A stretch of DNA of 64,000 nt, from positions 6,647 to 70,646 of the forward strand of contig JAHEBH010000002.1 in NCBI GenBank assembly GCA_024642335.1, read 5' to 3'. The stretch's first letter is position 1. Each line of letters begins with the position of its first letter. Source of the DNA: Erythrobacter sp. (lineage in GTDB: Bacteria; Pseudomonadota; Alphaproteobacteria; Sphingomonadales; Sphingomonadaceae). Both the position numbers and the translations under genes were made by a program. Below the pieces are notes generated by a model. The model worked only from the letters and a program-made list of their open reading frames with translations, ran no database searches and had not been told where the DNA came from. This document shows positions 1-12,229 of this stretch, piece after piece.

Positions 1-1976
1 ATGGTGAGAATATTCTCCTCCACCATCTGCTGGAACAGGCGCATGGCGGCTGCCCGCTCGGTCACGCCCAGTACCACCGGTCGGTCTGCCAGTTCGGCAA
101 TGATGTGGTCCTGGTCAGCCGGGTCGATCCGCAACAGCGCGCTTCCGACCGGCGCGCCATCGCGAACAAGCGAATCCAGCACAGCCTCGTCGGCATAGGC
201 GCGCGTACCCACCAGTTCGTCGATCGTGGCAGAAACCTTCATTTCGCGGGTGATCCGTCTGCCGGCGAGCATTTCCACCTGCACGCTCTGCCCCACCGAT
301 ACGCCCAATTGCTCGGCCAGCTGGCGGCTGAGCATCAACCCTGCAGGCGGCAGGCCGACTTCACCTCCGCCGGCGTCCACTCGTGCCATCAGCTTGGCAT
401 CACCGCTGGCGGATTCGATGGCCGTGCGTTCGCTCTTTGGGCCAAAGGACAGACGCACAGGCGAGGCGCGCGTTGCCTCCACCGCAATCACGCCATCGAT
501 TGATGCCAGCTCGTAGAGCACATCCTCATTGCGCGGCTCGATGAAGGTGACGGTCAAATCCTGGCGTTGGGCGCGGAAGAAGAAATCGTCGAGCATCGTT
601 CTGGATGCATCGACGAACTGCAGCGTGGAGAACAGCAGGCCAAGTGACAGCCCCACCCCCACCACGGTGATCGACGATCGTCCCGGCCAGCGCGCGATAT
701 GGCGGGCGATCATGTGACCGACTGCTGTAAAGCCCGCCTTCGCGCCGAGGCGTTCGAGCACGCCCACACGGTAAACTGGCGGCGGCGGCGGAGCCATCGC
801 CACGGCGGGCGACAGCTGCACCGCCGCGCGCACGCCCCCGATGGCGCCGAGCGAGGAGGAGGCAATCGACAGCGCCGCCCCGCCAAGGAAGACTTCACCC
901 GAGACGCGGTAGTTGAGGAAGGGAAAGCGGTAATACTCGCCGTAAAGGTCAGTCATGGCGCTGCCCAGCCACCAACCCAATATGGACCCCAAGCCAACTC
1001 CCAACATGGTGATGGCGATGGCAAACTTGAGATAATGCCAGCCGACGGCGGCGCTCGAGTACCCAAACGCCTTGAGCAGGCCGATTTCCGCCCGTTCCGT
1101 CCTGATCATGCGGCCAAGAACCACATAGACCAGGAAGGTGGACACGATCAGGAAGACAGGCGGGATCACCTTGGTCATCGCATCGAGCTGCATCAGCTCG
1201 TTGTCGAGGAACGAATTGGATGCATGGTCTTCGCGCCCATAGGCACCCGTCCCGCCATAGGGTTCCACCAGCGTGTCGAGGCGGCGGATCACTTCCTGCT
1301 CATTGGCCCCGCGTTCCAGCAGGAGCGACAGCGACGTGATCGCCTCGGTGCGATTAGTGGCGGCTTCCAGCGCTTTCTCGCCCATCCAGAAAATGCCGAA
1401 ACGGCTTTCATCGGGCATCAGTTCCCCGGGCGCGATCGCCCAGATGAAATCGGGTGCAAGCCCGATGCCCACGATCTTCAACCGGTCCTGGCTGCCGTAG
1501 ACAGTGGCATCGATCTCGTCGCCAAGGTCGAGGCCATTGGAAGCGGCAAAATTTTCGTCGACCACCACTTCCCCGGCCTGGTCTATCCCCGGACCGCGCC
1601 CGCGCACGATGACGATCTGGTTCAGCCGGGTTGCCCCGCCATCACCCACCGAATTGATGATCGCGCGGATGGAGTCATTGCGGCCCGGCAGGTCCAGCGT
1701 GGCGTATTGCTGGATGCGCCCTTCGGCCTCCGCCACCCCTTCCAGAGCCTCCACACGCTCGATGATGGAGCGCGGCGCGCGGGTCATGCTCGCGAAGACT
1801 TCGGCAAAGCGATAACGGTCGTAATAGGCATCGCGCGTCTCGACCAAAGACCGGTGTACGCCCATCGAAAGCACAAATGTCGCCATTGCCGCGGCAATCA
1901 CCACGGCAATGGCAAGTGCCTGTCCGCGCATGCGCCACAGATCGCGCAATAGTTTGATATCGAGCGATTTCACCAT
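1..1976 (-). CDS. ABC transporter permease (FtsX/MacB-like), 3' end runs off the window
   Basis: Not in the ORF track. ATG at 1976 overlaps the ATPase stop and reads [27 protein letters not shown]...; the frame is still open where checked (near 530-640 and at position 1, [17 protein letters not shown]). Confidence 0.85.
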
Positions 1977-2698
1977 CGGATCTCCGATGGGGAGATGCGC
2001 TGTTCATTTTCCTCTATGGAAGCAATTCGTCCGTCGAGGAAGTTGAACACGCGGTCGGCCATGGCGGCGATGCCGGCATTATGCGTGATCAGGATCAGCG
2101 TGGTGCCCAGTTCCGCATTCGCGCGCTCCAACGTCTCCAGCACACGCACGCCCGTGGCGCTGTCCAGCGCGCCCGTCGGCTCATCGCACAAGAGCACGCC
2201 GGGGCGCTTGGCAATCGCCCGTGCGACCGCCACGCGCTGTTGCTCTCCGCCTGAAAGCTGCGCCGGGAAATGGTCCATCCGCTCGGCCAGGCCGACCATG
2301 GCCAGCGCCTCTTCGGCATCCATCGGGTTCGGGGAAATGTCGGTGACAAGCCTTACATTCTCACGCGCCGTCAGGCTGGGGATGAGATTGTAGAACTGGA
2401 AGATGAAGCCGATGTTGGCGCGCCGGAAGCGCGTCAGTTCGGCGTCGTCCAGCTCGTTCAGCTGGGTATCGCCGTACCACAGGTCTCCGCTGGTAGCCCG
2501 GTCCAGGCCACCGATGATGTTGAGCAGCGTCGATTTGCCGCTGCCCGAAGGCCCGAGCAGGACCACCACCTCTCCGGCGCGGATTTCCAGATCGACCCCG
2601 CGCAGGGCATGAACCTGCGTCTCTCCGGTTTCATAGACCTTGCACAGCTCCCGCGCCGAGAATGCTTTCCGAAGTGCTTGAGAATCCACCGCGCTCAT
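1970..2698 (-). CDS. ABC transporter ATP-binding protein (LolD/MacB-like)
   Basis: Walker [17 protein letters not shown] signature, Walker B LLCDE; start chosen at MSAVDSQ. Confidence 0.92.
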
Positions 2699-2741: not shown

Positions 2742-3464
2742 TCAATCCTTCCGCGCGAATTGGCCCAGTTTCGCAACCGCGGGTCTTCCCGCCATGCGAT
2801 CGAGCCAGGCCATGGTGTGCGGTGTCGTATCCGTGTTGCACAGCTCAGGCAGCAAGCGAGGCAGGCCGGGCATCATGGAGTACCACTTGATATCAGCCAG
2901 CGTGTAGTTGTCGCCTATCAACCATTCACGGCCGCCCGAAAGATGCTGTTCCAGCCTGGCCGCAACATTGGCCAGCTTGTGCGTCGCATCGGCCAGCGCC
3001 TCTTCGCTGTAGCCCGTATTGGACACGGTCTCCCACTTCCGGCGGACCTCTTCATTGGGCATGTTGGCGAGGCGCTGGGCCATTTCTTGCTTGTCGATCT
3101 TGCTGGCGAAGGGGGTTGCCCTGTGCGCCCCGATCACAGTCAGCGCGGGACAGAAGTACTCGTCCACATATTTGGTCCACACCCGCATCTCGGCCCGTTC
3201 CCGCGGGTCGGCAGGGCGCAGAGGAACCTCGGGAAAGACATCGTCGAGGTATTCGTTGATCACGGTGGATTCGCGCACCAACCGCTCGTCATGCAGCAGG
3301 ACAGGAACCATCCCTTCCGGGCTGTATTGACGGAATGCCGGTTCGTGGTGCTCCCATTTGCGCGCGTCGAGGATGCGGTTCTCGAACTCCAGCCCCTTTT
3401 CGAGCAGGCAGAGCAGCGGCGTGAGCGAGTTGGCGACCGGGCCGAAGTGATAGAGTGCGAGCAT
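2742..3464 (-). CDS. Glutathione S-transferase, LigF-like beta-etherase family
   Basis: [31 protein letters not shown] and [21 protein letters not shown] match recalled LigF motifs. Confidence 0.75.
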
Positions 3465-3468
3465 GCAG

Positions 3469-4839
3469 TCAGCTTCGTCCAAGTTGCCCACTCGCGGCAT
3501 CCTCCGCGTTCAACCGTTCCACTTCCTCGCGATAGGGCTTCCAGCCCATCCATGTGACCAGCAATGCCGGTGGCAGGAAGACGATATGCAGCAACATGAT
3601 CGACCAGCGCAAATCGTCGGGCGAGGTGAAGATGAAGTCCGTCGTCGCGCCGGTGATGACCGGCGAGATACCCTGTCCGATCACCGTGAAGATAAACAGG
3701 TAAAGCGCCATCACCTGCCCCCGGATCTGGTTGGGCGTCACGATCAGCATCACAGCATTGAGCAAGGGGCCACTCATCCCGAGCGTTAGAAAACTCACCG
3801 CATTGCAGGCCAGCGCCAGTTCGGGCGTCGGCATCAGCGGCATGGCGATGGCAAAGGGGATATTGACCGCGCGGGTGTAGAGAATCACGCGGAAGGGTGC
3901 GTCCACCAGACCGCGTTTCTGCATTCTTTCCACCCATTGCGACCCGAACCAGAGACCGGCAAGCATGGCTATGATCGAGACAATGCCGGCCGTTACGCCA
4001 TAGGTCGCAGGCGACCAGGCATAGGTACGTTCAAAGAAGGCCGCGCCCCATGCCCTGCCCCCGCCATCCAGCGCACCAAGCGTAAGGCCGATGAGCAGAG
4101 GTCCGAACACCGCGAAATGCAGGCCCATATATTTGAGCGCACCAACCACCGGCACCCTGGATACGTCCGCCTGGAAACTGCGCCGCGGCGGCTCTTTCAA
4201 TGTCAGCAGCAAAAGGGCGACGAGCAGGCCGGGCAGGCCGACACCGATCATCACTGCCTGCCAGGGCCTTAGCTCCCCCGCGAGCGGAAGGATCGGCGTA
4301 CCGATCTTCGCGATGATATAGATCATCGCCCCGCCCAGCAGCAGCGCCAGTCCGTTGCCAGCCACCGAGCCGATCTGCAATCCGTAGACCGCCTTGGGCA
4401 GCTTGTTGCGTGGGAAGCAGTCGGAGACGATCGAATAAGCGGTGGGTCCGTTCACCGATTCACCGGCACCCACCACCATGCGCGCCAGGAACAACTGGGT
4501 GAAATTACCGGCCAACCCGCATGCGGCCGTGGCGAGGCTCCACACGGTAATGCCAATGGCAAGTATCCGCGTGCGCACCCAGCGATCGACAACGGGAGAC
4601 AACGGGATGCCAACCACGACATAGACAAACGCGAATGCCGGGCCGAGCAAGAGGCTGGCCTGCGTATCGGTAAGCTCGAAATCGCGGATGATGTCCTGAA
4701 TCAGCAGGCCCAAAATGCCCTGGTCGAGCATGGCGAAAGTGGTGCACAGCGCCAGCACGCCCACGGTGAACCAGGCCTGCTTCGGCGGCGGATATGCGGC
4801 TTCAGCAGTCTCCTTCTGCGGGGCTTCGACCTCGGCCAT
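3469..4839 (-). CDS. MFS transporter (spinster-like)
   Basis: 456 aa, about 12 hydrophobic segments, ARMVVGAGES MFS motif; ends 4 nt before the GST start. Confidence 0.85.
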   Translation of the reverse strand: MAEVEAPQKETAEAAYPPPKQAWFTVGVLALCTTFAMLDQGILGLLIQDIIRDFELTDTQASLLLGPAFAFVYVVVGIPLSPVVDRWVRTRILAIGITVWSLATAACGLAGNFTQLFLARMVVGAGESVNGPTAYSIVSDCFPRNKLPKAVYGLQIGSVAGNGLALLLGGAMIYIIAKIGTPILPLAGELRPWQAVMIGVGLPGLLVALLLLTLKEPPRRSFQADVSRVPVVGALKYMGLHFAVFGPLLIGLTLGALDGGGRAWGAAFFERTYAWSPATYGVTAGIVSIIAMLAGLWFGSQWVERMQKRGLVDAPFRVILYTRAVNIPFAIAMPLMPTPELALACNAVSFLTLGMSGPLLNAVMLIVTPNQIRGQVMALYLFIFTVIGQGISPVITGATTDFIFTSPDDLRWSIMLLHIVFLPPALLVTWMGWKPYREEVERLNAEDAASGQLGRS

Positions 4840-4982
4840 GCTAGCGATTCACATCCCCTCTTCCCTTTTCCAAGCGCCGAGCTTTACACATTTTACACTG
4901 TCTAAAGGAGAAAATTTCCTCCTCGGGTTGGGCTGCAAATGACAACAGGCACGCGGCAGGATTGTGAGTGATCGAAAGCATG

Positions 4983-5014
4983 TCCTGAGCCTGTCGAAGT
5001 GGATCGGCTCAGGA
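4983..5014. repeat. REP-like palindrome
   Basis: TCCTGAGCC-(TGTCGAAGTGGATC)-GGCTCAGGA, 9-bp inverted repeat containing CTGAGCCTGTCGAAG, downstream of tRNA-Ser. Confidence 0.55.
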
Positions 5015-8799: not shown

Positions 8800-10158
8800 T
8801 TATGCCTTCTTTGCAGCAGGAACATGATGATCGATCACCAAGGCTGCGACGAGAATGATCGCCGCGCAGACCACCAGTGTTGCAAAGAACGGGATGACGC
8901 TTGTCCCGCCAAGGTCCAGCAACCAGCCACCGAATGCGGTGGCGCTTACAGCGCCAACGCGGCTCATCAGGATTCCCAGCCCTATACCGGTCGAACGGAT
9001 CGAGGACGGGTAGCCCGCTGCCATGATCACATACATGCCGGCAATGCCGGCGCTGAAGAACGCACCCGCTGCTCCGATCAGCGCGGTCACAACCATGCGT
9101 TCCGCTTCATCGGGCGCTGCCGGCAGGCCTTCCACCGCGCCAGCCAGCGCCAGCAGAACCAGCAACAGCACCGCGCCCACTACAATCATCACCGGCTTTG
9201 AACCGAAATGCCGCATGGCCGCGCCCACGAGGATCGAACCGATCATCGATGTGATACCGCCGATCGACACGGTATTACCCGCTTGTTCGAGCGTAAAGCC
9301 GGTAGCGGTGAGGAAGGTCGTGGACCAGCTGAGGATCGAATAGGCAACCATGGCGGCTGCGGCGAAGGCCACGCCCACCCCAATATTGAGGCGCGTGAAG
9401 GAGGGGTCGAAAATGCCGATCTTCCCGCCATCGGGCAGGTCGGCCGCATGAGTTTCCGGGGCCAGGTCGATCTCGCCCTCAAGAACCAGCGCTGCACTCT
9501 TCTTTGCCTGCTCTGTCTTGCCCTGTCCCAGGAGGAAGGACGGGCTGTCGCGCAGGACTGCGAGGATGACCACCACCAGCCCCAGCGTGGCGAAGCCGAA
9601 GAACACGAACGTCCCGTCCCATCCACGTGCTATGGCCAGATCGGGGCCGATCCAGCCCACGATGGTCCCGCCTATCGGCGTTCCGACCGAAAGCGTGCTG
9701 ACGGCAATGGGGCGCCAGCGATCCGGCGTCCATTCGCTCGCCATGGTCAGCGCATTGGCATAGGCCGAGCCAAAACCAAGCCCGCCGATCAGGCGCCAGA
9801 AGGCCATCGACCAGACACCTTCAGCGCTGCCAGCACCGATTGTTGCCAATGAAAAGACTACCGCCGCGATGGCCAGCGCATAGCGGCGCCCGATTCGGTC
9901 TCCGATGATGCCGCCTGCGCCCGAGCCAAGGCCAAAGCCTACCAGCGCCGCACCCATGGCCAGGCCAAAAGTGCTGCGATCAACGCCAAAGTCCTCCATC
10001 ACCAGCGGAGCGATGATGCCGAGCAACTGCAGGTCCATCCCGTCGCAAACCAGGATCAGCATGCAAACGGCCACGGTCAGCCATTGGAATGCCCGCATGG
10101 GCGAGCGATTGAGTGCTTCGACAAACGAGATACTGCCCGCAGGCGCTGATGTAGCCAA
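8800..10158 (-). CDS. Aromatic acid:H+ symporter family MFS transporter (PcaK/BenK-like)
   Basis: LVCDGMDLQLLGIIAP, GDRIGRR, EWTPDRWR, YPSSIRSTGIG motifs typical of AAHS transporters. Confidence 0.8.
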   Translation of the reverse strand: MATSAPAGSISFVEALNRSPMRAFQWLTVAVCMLILVCDGMDLQLLGIIAPLVMEDFGVDRSTFGLAMGAALVGFGLGSGAGGIIGDRIGRRYALAIAAVVFSLATIGAGSAEGVWSMAFWRLIGGLGFGSAYANALTMASEWTPDRWRPIAVSTLSVGTPIGGTIVGWIGPDLAIARGWDGTFVFFGFATLGLVVVILAVLRDSPSFLLGQGKTEQAKKSAALVLEGEIDLAPETHAADLPDGGKIGIFDPSFTRLNIGVGVAFAAAAMVAYSILSWSTTFLTATGFTLEQAGNTVSIGGITSMIGSILVGAAMRHFGSKPVMIVVGAVLLLVLLALAGAVEGLPAAPDEAERMVVTALIGAAGAFFSAGIAGMYVIMAAGYPSSIRSTGIGLGILMSRVGAVSATAFGGWLLDLGGTSVIPFFATLVVCAAIILVAALVIDHHVPAAKKA

Positions 10159-10224
10159 TGGTAATCCCCTCTTCCGGAAGCGAGGATTCCCGCAATCGTG
10201 GCAAATGACCAGAGCAAAAGTGGA

Positions 10225-10809
10225 TTAGAGGACAGGAATCTCCTCTGCCCAACCCATATCGAGGCGATAGATCACATCCTGACCCGCAGAATGATAGCAC
10301 AACATCGCATCGCGACCCTCCCCGATATAGAGTGCCCGCAATATGGAACCGGCAACGCCATGTCCCACCACCACCAGGTCGCGGTTGCCTGCCCAGCGCA
10401 GCCAGCCCCAGAGCCGTTCGACGGCAGCGTCCAGCCCTTCACCGTCGCTGCAATGGTTTGCCCATGCCGACATGAAGGTCGGCTCATCCTCGATGACAGG
10501 ATCGCGCGCGCAGATGGAGGCAAAGTGGTGCTTCTCCCACGATCCGCAACCGACTTCCTGCAGCCGCGCATCTGTGATCACGGGCTTGTCCAAGCCGGCC
10601 GCATCCCGGACCAGCAGGGCTGATTCATGCGCACGTCTTTGCGGGCTTGAGATGATATCGAAGCCGTCATGCTGCAGCATGTCGCGCAGTTTCGTGCCCA
10701 TGGCCGCTGCCTGTTCCCTGCCGAGGCTGGTCAGCGGACTGTCGAGGCTTCCCTGAATGCGCCGCTCCAGGTTGAACTCGGTCTGGCCGTGGCGCAGCAG
10801 GAAGATCAT
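10225..10809 (-). CDS. Histidine phosphatase family protein
   Basis: LLRHGQT catalytic motif, SSPQRRA, LQEVGCGSWE, VGHG; start overlaps the SDR stop (ATGA). Confidence 0.88.
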   Translation of the reverse strand: MIFLLRHGQTEFNLERRIQGSLDSPLTSLGREQAAAMGTKLRDMLQHDGFDIISSPQRRAHESALLVRDAAGLDKPVITDARLQEVGCGSWEKHHFASICARDPVIEDEPTFMSAWANHCSDGEGLDAAVERLWGWLRWAGNRDLVVVGHGVAGSILRALYIGEGRDAMLCYHSAGQDVIYRLDMGWAEEIPVL

Positions 10810-11717
10810 TTGCGGCGCTGCTCCGGATCGGGAAGCGGCCGGTTGCCCGGTGCCATCAGCTTGCGCACCATTTCCGCACGGTTCGCCTCGAACTGGATCC
10901 GGGCCGGTGTAGGCTCATCATCGGGGAAGGCTTCCTCGATCTCGCGATGGCGCTGCTTCACTTCGTCGAGGAATTCGCGATTGGTGAGGATGTAGAAGCG
11001 ATTTTCCTTGATTGCCTGCACAACCGCGCGCCCGGTATCCTCGGGATCGATCGCGCCGCGCATGGCATCCCACAAATCCTTGAGGAACTGCGGTGCGTTC
11101 TCTTCATCCACCGTTCCGGGATTGTCTTCCGGCAAAGGAACGATGGCCGTGCGCGTGGCCCCGGGGAACAGGCAGGAAACGCCAATGCCCTGCCGCGCCA
11201 GTTGCAGGCGCAGGCTCTCCGAAAAACCGCGAATGGCATATTTGCTGGTCGAATAGGCACCCAGGTTCGGCAACGGCACCATGCCCGCCATCGAACTGGT
11301 ATTGACGACATGGCCACCCTCACCCTGCGCACGAATGATCGGCACCACGATCTTGGTGCCATTGATCACGCCGCCCAAGTTGATCGCCATCGCCTTGTCC
11401 CAATCCTCGAATTCGGGATCAGCCGCCTTGCCGCCGCCATTGATGCCGGCATTGTTGCACAGCACGTGGATCTTGCCGAAATGGCCCAGCACTTCGTCAG
11501 CTGCTGCCTTCAGGCTCTCGCGGTCGGCAACATTGGCCTTCACGAAATAGACGGCGTTGTTGCCTGCCAGTTCCTTCCTTGCGGCAGCGATATGCTCGTC
11601 GCTCCAGTCCGCCAGGGCAACCTTCATGCCTTCGGCCAGGAAAGCCTTGCCCATCCCCAGCCCGATGCCGCTGGCACCGCCGGTAATGAAGGCAACCTTG
11701 CCCTTCAGATCTTCCAT
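10806..11717 (-). CDS. SDR oxidoreductase, LigD/LigN/LigO-like
   Basis: KVAFITGGASGIG, NNAG, catalytic YSTSK; about 300 aa with extended C-terminus. Confidence 0.85.
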   Translation of the reverse strand: MEDLKGKVAFITGGASGIGLGMGKAFLAEGMKVALADWSDEHIAAARKELAGNNAVYFVKANVADRESLKAAADEVLGHFGKIHVLCNNAGINGGGKAADPEFEDWDKAMAINLGGVINGTKIVVPIIRAQGEGGHVVNTSSMAGMVPLPNLGAYSTSKYAIRGFSESLRLQLARQGIGVSCLFPGATRTAIVPLPEDNPGTVDEENAPQFLKDLWDAMRGAIDPEDTGRAVVQAIKENRFYILTNREFLDEVKQRHREIEEAFPDDEPTPARIQFEANRAEMVRKLMAPGNRPLPDPEQRRK

Positions 11718-11764
11718 GTTCGCAATTTCCCCCTGGATCGATGTCGGCAAATGGGCCGAAGTCT

Positions 11765-12229
11765 TCAACGCCCCTGCGTCAAAAGCCCTGCGGCTGCAAT
11801 ACCCGCTTCGCCGCACGCGCTATCATCTGCACTGTCTGCACCCGAAACGCCCACGCCGCCAAGTGCCACGCCGTCTTCGGTAAAGAAGGGCGTACCCCCC
11901 TCCCAGGTCGCGACACCCGGCGCGCCTTGACCCCAGTTGGCCGTCTCCTTCGAGGCAACATGGATGGTGGCTGCAGACCGGCCCTTCCACATGGCAAAAT
12001 CGGCAACAGCCGTGGAAGTACCATCCATGAAGGCAAAGGTGATCAGGCGTCCCGCCTCGTCATAGACAGCCACGGCAATGTTCATTTCGCGCTCGCCTGC
12101 CCAGGCAAGGCAGGTATCGCGAATGGTCGCCGCCGTCGCATAATCCAGCATAGGCCGGGCAGACTGAGCCAATGCCGGGACACTTGCCGCCAGCGCAATT
12201 GCCGCAGCCAGGATAGACTTGGTTCGCAT
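11765..12229 (-). CDS. GlcG/HbpS-like heme-binding protein with signal peptide
   Basis: IAVAVYDEAGRL, GG.P...GVALGGVGVSGA..DD..C..AG; Ala-rich signal ending ALA. Confidence 0.8.
   Translation of the reverse strand: MRTKSILAAAIALAASVPALAQSARPMLDYATAATIRDTCLAWAGEREMNIAVAVYDEAGRLITFAFMDGTSTAVADFAMWKGRSAATIHVASKETANWGQGAPGVATWEGGTPFFTEDGVALGGVGVSGADSADDSACGEAGIAAAGLLTQGR

Follow-up and report, generated by a model that had tools for sequence, protein, structure and literature searches.

A two-gene unit in an Erythrobacter sp. genome encodes a glutathione S-transferase (GST) of the LigF family and a Spinster-like transporter of the major facilitator superfamily (MFS). The unit lies in a 64,000-nucleotide stretch (GenBank assembly GCA_024642335.1, contig JAHEBH010000002.1; C28:6647-70646 in our numbering), referred to here as the window, of a 2.66-Mb genome in 105 contigs that is 98.7% complete. 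The GST gene occupies 2742..3464 on the minus strand (240 amino acids and a stop codon at 2744-2742), and the MFS gene precedes it at 3469..4839 on the same strand (456 amino acids, TGA stop at 3471-3469). Judging from its sequence, the GST belongs to a third, uncharacterised LigF subclade outside both LigF1 and LigF2. With a probability of roughly 0.55, we propose that it is a glutathione-dependent β-aryl-ether lyase for a lignin-derived substrate moved by the MFS protein. As part of the same proposal, the two genes would be the surviving core of a larger cluster for the uptake and cleavage of β-aryl-ether dimers.

The GST scores above the Pfam cut-offs for GST_N, GST_N_2, GST_N_3 and GST_C. 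Its best PDB match by phmmer is LigF of Sphingobium SYK-6 (4XT0, a β(S)-specific enzyme of the LigF1 subclade), with an E-value of 8.7e-55 over residues 2-233, and the next structure follows at 8e-20. The identity to 4XT0 is 44% in Foldseek and ~47% overall in a hand count on the phmmer alignment. PMC6369299 quotes an identity of about 40% or more as the cut-off for class membership; these values lie above it, and LigF is the best match. The same hand count puts the first 101 residues at ~63% identity and the following 101 at ~34%, in agreement with a first-pass annotation of this DNA, which had described the C-terminal half as departing from LigF. That annotation had also quoted FGPVANS and a 16-letter motif from the GST, and both are found in the translation; the motifs it had given for LigF, FGPGANSLKPL and another of 16 letters, do occur in the aligned 4XT0 chain. 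An AlphaFold2 model built from 106 sequences has a mean predicted local distance difference test score of 96 and a predicted template modelling (TM) score of 0.92. The model superposes on 4XT0 with TM scores of 0.93/0.92 and a root-mean-square deviation of 1.3 Å at 44% identity, while the next fold reaches a TM score of 0.74-0.77. The GST is thus a LigF-family member whose fold has the two domains of a GST and matches LigF in particular.

Other family assignments were tried and rejected. The NCBIfam "beta-etherase" model NF042997, which has 273 positions and evidently describes the LigE type, gives the GST 21.2 bits against a cut-off of 440. The models of the Nu-class glutathione lyases (YghU, YfcG, NaGSTNu; PRK11752 and PRK13972) score it at 17.6 and 19.1 bits, where the cut-offs are 325 and 332. 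The top NCBIfam match, FzlA, reaches 60 bits against a cut-off of 300.

The window GST has the Asn12-Ser13 pair, which shows 100% conservation across the LigF-type clades and is shared by BaeA. Mutating the LigF serine at this site (Ser13/14) to alanine leaves <5% of the activity (PMC4777856), and Asn14 of BaeA is essential (PMC6369299). In LigF, glutathione is contacted by Gln39, His40, Gln52, Val53, Glu65, Ser66, Gln144 and Trp148 (PMC4777856). Of these contacts the GST keeps His40, V53, E65, S66 and W144, the last being the equivalent of LigF Trp148, and it also keeps P54; Gln39, Gln52 and Gln144 are replaced, as set out below. Like SYK-6 LigF, it has the FGP.ANS pattern together with a 15-letter motif, the Asn-Ser site, the cis-Pro loop, the Glu65-Ser66 pair and the tryptophan, and the likeness in sequence extends over the full length of the protein.

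The phylogenetic placement was based on 175 LigF-family sequences, taken from 120 genomes within the GTDB family of the host and from 80 named loci of species-representative genomes with their flanks. A FastTree analysis was followed by a careful IQ-TREE analysis of 74 rows with the LG+C20 posterior mean site frequency model, and the support values are quoted as ultrafast bootstrap/Shimodaira-Hasegawa-like approximate likelihood ratio test. The LigF1 clade was labelled by a paralogue of the host genome (contig C96). The LigF2, BaeA and BaeB clades were labelled with short motifs from the machine-read text of Fig. S4 in PMC6369299 (Kontur et al. 2019) rather than with full-length references, and the LigF2 label is further backed by the known location of LigF2 within a few kb of neighbouring BaeA and BaeB genes. 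The LigF supergroup, with the BaeA and BaeB types excluded, is supported at 97/91. LigF1 (100/99) and LigF2 (100/97) are sisters (98/89), and the clade with the window GST (100/100) lies inside the supergroup and outside LigF1+LigF2. It stands there among poorly resolved clades of uncultured Steroidobacteraceae, Woeseiaceae and other Proteobacteria. The description of the GST as a divergent enzyme of the β-etherase clade thus holds, and the protein does not cluster with generic GSTs outside the LigF/BaeA radiation. The tree also rules out a LigF1 or LigF2 orthologue, and the real LigF1 of the host is the C96 gene. Identity with BaeA or BaeB was rejected as well, since the GST lies outside both clades, has no adjacent GST gene, and no BaeA/BaeB-type orthologue is found in the genome.

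The clade contains 16 sphingomonad or Erythrobacteraceae orthologues with 62-77% identity to the window GST, from hosts including Alteraurantiacibacter aestuarii, Croceibacterium spp., Altererythrobacter fulvus, Caenibius and Porphyrobacter. The deeper branches consist of one row from a metagenome-assembled genome (L036, 56% identity) and two groups of three rows each (52-55%), one from Caulobacteraceae and the other from gammaproteobacterial metagenome-assembled genomes including Steroidobacteraceae. In a large protein collection, the best 120 clusters listed (at 90% identity) are all at least 66% identical to the GST, and the named members among them are Erythrobacteraceae, including Altererythrobacter sp. 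B11 (BBC72552.1 / WP_119082791.1). The characterised enzyme of that strain, LigF-AB11, is 66% identical to LigF (PMC10616338); it is of the LigF1 type and distinct from the B11 member of the clade described here. Kontur et al. show a third cluster, without a name, in their tree (WP_014075049.1 and OJU58736.1; PMC6369299), and it could not be matched to any of the clades in our tree.

The MFS gene matches Pfam MFS_1 (E 1.2e-31, 110 bits). Its only strong PDB match is 6E8J (E 1.3e-26, residues 26-400), which we take to be HnSpns, the Hyphomonas Spinster homologue, and other structures match at 1e-6 or weaker. The earlier label "Spinster-like" is justified by this single strong solved relative. 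We know of no established physiological substrate for HnSpns, while the window MFS protein is tied to an aromatic catabolic cluster, as described below.

The two genes are separated by four nucleotides, just as the first-pass annotation had it. Both open reading frames (ORFs) are on the minus strand, and the spacer that separates the stop codon of the MFS gene from the ATG of the GST gene reads CTGC (3465..3468) directly in the sequence. A longer ORF is possible from 3500, and the database gene call (P0003, 249 amino acids) also starts upstream; both overlap the MFS gene. Comparison with relatives shows that the ATG at 3464, directly after CTGC, is the true start, because every GST orthologue begins with ML.LYHFGP and because in the closest metagenome relative, the marine contig L152, a Shine-Dalgarno-like GAGGAAG stands just 5' of the matching ATG. 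In L152 the MFS-GST spacer is 13 nucleotides. A gap of 4 nt, together with a gene order shared by this diverged contig, fits an operon-like coupling of the two genes. According to the ORF map, the intergenic region between the MFS start and a divergent YccV-like gene (4840..4998) would hold the promoter of the pair, and no terminator-like site was found between the GST gene and the ABC ATPase gene that follows it.

L152 repeats the order of four genes, with the MFS protein 91%, the GST 80%, the ABC ATPase 90% and the FtsX permease 94% identical to those of the window. At a synonymous divergence (dS) of ~1.1, the GST gene has a ratio of nonsynonymous to synonymous substitution rates (dN/dS) of 0.10, and the MFS gene one of 0.056. 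The MFS-GST pair is therefore real, conserved and under purifying selection. An assembly artefact at the junction was ruled out because the same order is found at this divergence.

A larger conserved cluster surrounds the orthologous pair in 15 or more genomes of Erythrobacteraceae or sphingomonads. The GST orthologue is within ~10 kb of an MFS orthologue (62-84% identical to the window protein) and of LigD-type short-chain dehydrogenases/reductases (SDRs) at 15/15 sphingomonad loci, where a TonB receptor and two GSTs resembling BaeA and BaeB are usually present too. In Croceibacterium soli the order is BaeA-like GST, BaeB-like GST, TonB receptor, MFS (80% identical to the window MFS), DUF8021, SDR, MFS_3, DUF8021, SDR and divergent GST orthologue, and much the same gene set recurs at all 15 loci. 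The best solved relatives of the cluster SDRs are the SYK-6 Cα-dehydrogenases 4YA6/4YAC, 4YAE and 4Y98. The BaeA-like and BaeB-like genes form sister lineages of true BaeA and BaeB. The linkage extends beyond the sphingomonads, since two gammaproteobacterial loci (L037, L039) and four soil or sediment contigs (L170, L185, L186, L192) combine a GST of the same or a neighbouring clade with an MFS protein of this family (38-47% identity) and LigD-type SDRs.

A reduced form of the cluster is found in Alteraurantiacibacter aestuarii, whose GST is the nearest tree row to the window GST. Here the cluster consists of the MFS gene, two SDR genes, the GST gene and a BaeA-like fragment of 58 amino acids next to the MFS gene (L025:6354-6527). 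It is intermediate between the full cluster and the two genes of the window, and comparison of these loci indicates that the window pair is what remains of a once larger cluster of Erythrobacteraceae type. The flanks of the window pair showed no synteny with the other clusters.

Some features of the relatives' loci deserve mention in their own right. The BaeA/BaeB-like pair of Croceibacterium soli is encoded at L023:17563-18282 (-) and L023:18348-19061 (-), and similar pairs are found at L022, L024, L026, L029, L030 and L035. The two genes belong to sister lineages of BaeA (YTWEPNANSGKP) and BaeB, and the BaeB-like partner has G-H-S-A-S in place of the N-G-P-S of BaeB. The pair is probably a second kind of heterodimeric etherase. 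The two DUF8021 (PF26061) genes, which are conserved within the Erythrobacteraceae cluster, lie at L023:8944-10008 (+) and L023:12607-13572 (-). The protein of the first has no Pfam-A, NCBIfam or PDB sequence match and owes its name to a protein atlas only. Paralogues are present in the host genome on contigs C83 (four), C35 and C64. The DUF8021 proteins may be missing enzymes of the β-etherase pathway. In four contigs of uncultured soil and sediment Proteobacteria (L173, L175, L180, L184), tandem LigF-like GSTs that are 46-48% identical to the window GST stand beside a LigD-type SDR. These could be etherase pairs from beyond the sphingomonads, either heterodimeric or complementary in the enantiomers they cleave.

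Among the characterised systems, NaLigF2 of Novosphingobium aromaticivorans (Saro_2865) offers a parallel in position. Like NaLigF2, the window GST is a LigF-family protein about 40-47% identical to LigF1. Two adjacent genes of the BaeA/BaeB type lie within a few kb of LigF2 in clusters of the Novosphingobium type, and within a few kb of the present clade in those of Erythrobacteraceae (PMC6369299). The two can be seen as positional counterparts because both lie near such pairs. They differ in sequence, since LigF2 proteins have the motifs YYHAEPLANSLKSM and RMRYWNKFIDEH and a His65-Thr66 pair and are 36-44% identical to the window GST. They also differ in context, since an orthologue of the Spinster-like MFS gene is missing from the three LigF2-BaeAB clusters of other sphingomonads that were examined, although a TonB receptor is close by. 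The heterodimeric β(R)-etherase BaeAB from N. aromaticivorans is part of the same wider radiation, and BaeA has the Asn-Ser motif in common with the GST. On the other hand, the GST is only 31-36% identical to the BaeA/BaeB types, falls outside both of their clades and is not encoded next to a partner. Unlike SYK-6 LigF, it follows an MFS gene and is not in a ligDFEG-type operon. Taken together, the fold, identity and catalytic motifs place the GST in the LigF class by sequence, although outside the subclades with demonstrated activity. An association with pathway genes is seen in the relatives (LigD-type SDRs and the BaeA/BaeB-like pair), while in the window it is limited to a LigD-like SDR.

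This LigD/LigO/LigL-type Cα-dehydrogenase-like SDR is encoded at 10806..11816 on the minus strand (adh_short; PDB 4YA6 with 191 bits, 4YAE, 4Y98). It lies ~6 kb from the GST on the same strand, is not in the operon and is 44% identical to a Croceibacterium soli cluster SDR. It is a possible pathway partner of the GST. Within 8800-11816 (-), genes for a histidine phosphatase and for an MFS protein of the sugar/aromatic-acid type are coupled to the SDR gene. Downstream of the GST, a minus-strand ABC ATPase gene (1970..2697, Pfam ABC_tran) has its probable start at the ATG at 2697, 44 nt past the GST stop, and is followed by an FtsX/MacB-type permease (3-1976, minus; Pfam FtsX and MacB_PCD). These two are probably a separate housekeeping unit, and they were not found beside the cluster in relatives other than L152.

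The host genome has three LigF-related genes, namely the window GST, the C96 gene and a gene on contig C59. The C96 gene is of the LigF1 type (336 bits against 4XT0, motif YSFGPGANSLKP), so the window GST is not the primary LigF of the organism. The C59 gene (C59:1064-1876, L003:1064-1876 +) is a distant LigF relative on a long branch (93 bits against 4XT0). It has HHGSSACAAK in place of FGP.ANS and one close relative, in Croceibacterium soli (G083:C14). A LigE is encoded on contig C98 (499.6 bits against the NF042997 cut-off of 440), and the neighbourhoods of LigF1 and LigE are unrelated.

A working model can be drawn from these comparisons. It builds on the fold, family and clade of the GST, its conserved residues, the linkage of the genes and the purifying selection, all of which the analysis established, and it adds chemistry, substrate, stereochemical preference, co-transcription and import as the parts that we infer. 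The TonB receptor (in the full clusters) and the MFS protein would take up a dimer or its oxidised form, the latter carrying it across the inner membrane, and the position of the receptor beside the MFS gene suggests import. LigD-type dehydrogenases, for which the gene at 10806-11816 is one candidate, would supply the α-keto substrate. The GST, translated with the MFS protein from one shared transcript, would bind glutathione in the interdomain cleft, placed by the Asn12-Ser13 and Glu65-Ser66 sites. The thiolate would then attack the β-carbon of an α-keto β-aryl ether of the β-(2-methoxyphenoxy)-hydroxypropiovanillone (MPHPV) type by bimolecular nucleophilic substitution (SN2). The products would be a phenol and a glutathione conjugate of inverted configuration, as for LigF, whose SN2 mechanism with inversion serves as the template (PMC4777856). 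For uptake, a precedent by kind of transporter, rather than by any sequence likeness to DdvK, is the DdvT/DdvK system of SYK-6, since a TonB receptor and an MFS protein are both present in the full Erythrobacteraceae cluster. According to PMC6874591, as cited in PMC12997858, DdvT and DdvK are the TonB receptor and the MFS protein for uptake of the 5,5' lignin dimer 5,5'-dehydrodivanillate (DDVA). DDVA is charged, unlike β-O-4 dimers such as guaiacylglycerol-β-guaiacyl ether (GGE), for which no transporter is known (PMC12997858).

Several observations weigh against a lyase fed by an importer. The GST falls in neither of the two subclades with demonstrated β-etherase activity (LigF1 and LigF2). 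No paper was found that names accessions of its clade, and the 13 enzymes tested in one 2020 β-etherase mining study were not compared. Unlike SYK-6 LigF, the enzyme has methionine at Gln52 and valine at Gln144 (position 140 of the GST) in 16/16 sphingomonad clade members, and histidine at Gln39, which is also found in most LigF1 proteins. In LigF, Gln52 touches the cysteinyl part of glutathione and Gln144 the glycine (PMC4777856). The two changes point to an altered site, but they need not abolish activity, because the active BaeA has threonine and arginine at the same two positions. The genome already has LigF1 and LigE, so the window GST is either redundant or functionally different. No Nu-class GST (NF008731, E 1e-10 or better) was found in the host genome, while 5/5 relatives checked score above the cut-off, and no LigG-like lyase was found among the GST-fold genes checked (NCBIfam scans of nine, PDB search of one). 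As a result, a complete pathway is not evident in the host. The BaeA/BaeB-like pair, the cluster SDRs, the TonB receptor and the DUF8021 cluster genes have no orthologue anywhere in the host assembly. A sigma-70 consensus scan of the region upstream of the pair gave no match and thus no promoter candidate. The Spinster-type MFS proteins of animals are exporters. A 2026 review reports no transporter implicated for uncharged β-O-4 dimers (PMC12997858).

Some of these points would also fit a LigF-fold GST with a different glutathione chemistry, which we consider unlikely. The enzyme might deglutathionylate a conjugate of the glutathionyl-hydroxypropiovanillone (GS-HPV) type, the step of LigG and the Nu class, or conjugate another electrophile, with the MFS protein exporting the conjugate or a toxic phenol. 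The lack of a Nu-class GST in a nearly complete genome and of a recognised LigG-like GST among those checked would leave room for such a role, as would the two altered glutathione contacts, the export activity of animal Spinster proteins and the fact that host LigF1 and LigE already serve both enantiomers. However, the GST keeps the Asn-Ser site of the transferase-type LigF and BaeA proteins, while the known lyases have either a catalytic cysteine (LigG, Omega-like) or the Nu-class two-glutathione site, and the Nu models give the GST only 17-19 bits against cut-offs of 325-332. A Nu-class GST is present as well in relatives that have the complete cluster, which shows that the clade is no replacement for it, and the TonB receptor beside the MFS gene in these clusters points to uptake.

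That the GST is a general detoxification enzyme with an MFS neighbour of no functional meaning appears very unlikely. Databases name the protein only "glutathione S-transferase family protein", and the flanks in the window (YccV-like, ABC/FtsX) are unrelated to lignin, but its linkage with the MFS gene and with LigD-type dehydrogenases across Erythrobacteraceae, gammaproteobacterial metagenome-assembled genomes (including Steroidobacteraceae) and many metagenome contigs is not expected by chance. The match to LigF is also 35 orders of magnitude better than that to any other solved GST. We give slightly less weight still to a weakly active or non-catalytic partner subunit, comparable to BaeB, that would pair with another LigF-family protein, perhaps LigF1. 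Heterodimers are known in this radiation, with BaeB having <0.3% of the BaeAB activity (PMC6369299), further LigF-family GSTs are always present in the relatives' clusters, and tandem pairs occur at some soil metagenome loci. The BaeA and BaeB genes are adjacent, however, while the GST stands alone beside the transporter gene in two diverged genomes. The full Asn-Ser and Glu-Ser motifs are kept at a dN/dS of 0.10, and the GST is far closer to the homodimeric LigF (TM 0.93) than to BaeB. The assignment as a β-aryl-ether lyase with a dedicated transporter remains our preferred explanation, and every tested member of the LigF/BaeA radiation is a β-etherase (PMC6369299).

β-O-4 ethers make up 50-70% of the linkages in lignin (PMC4777856), and tests on the LigF side have so far covered no more than two LigF subclades and BaeAB. 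A third, well-supported clade with changed glutathione contacts is now delimited. Its members are frequent among Erythrobacteraceae, and more deeply branching relatives occur in uncultured Proteobacteria of soil and sediment. The conserved link of this clade with a TonB receptor and a Spinster-like MFS protein has, as far as the literature searched shows, not been described for the pathway before. The MFS and TonB genes are concrete, testable transporter candidates for β-O-4 dimers, which matters because none has been implicated in the review cited above. With only two genes left, the remnant in this 2.7-Mb genome is a minimal system for studying enzyme and transporter side by side. A more speculative extension, about which we are doubtful, is that the MFS protein and the TonB receptor would form the first dedicated uptake system for β-aryl-ether lignin fragments, and that the third LigF clade would cleave substrates that LigF1, LigF2 and LigE do not handle. 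These might include carboxylated or otherwise charged, syringyl-rich or flavonoid-linked β-ethers. If true, this would explain why a small genome kept exactly the MFS-GST pair alongside LigF1 and LigE.

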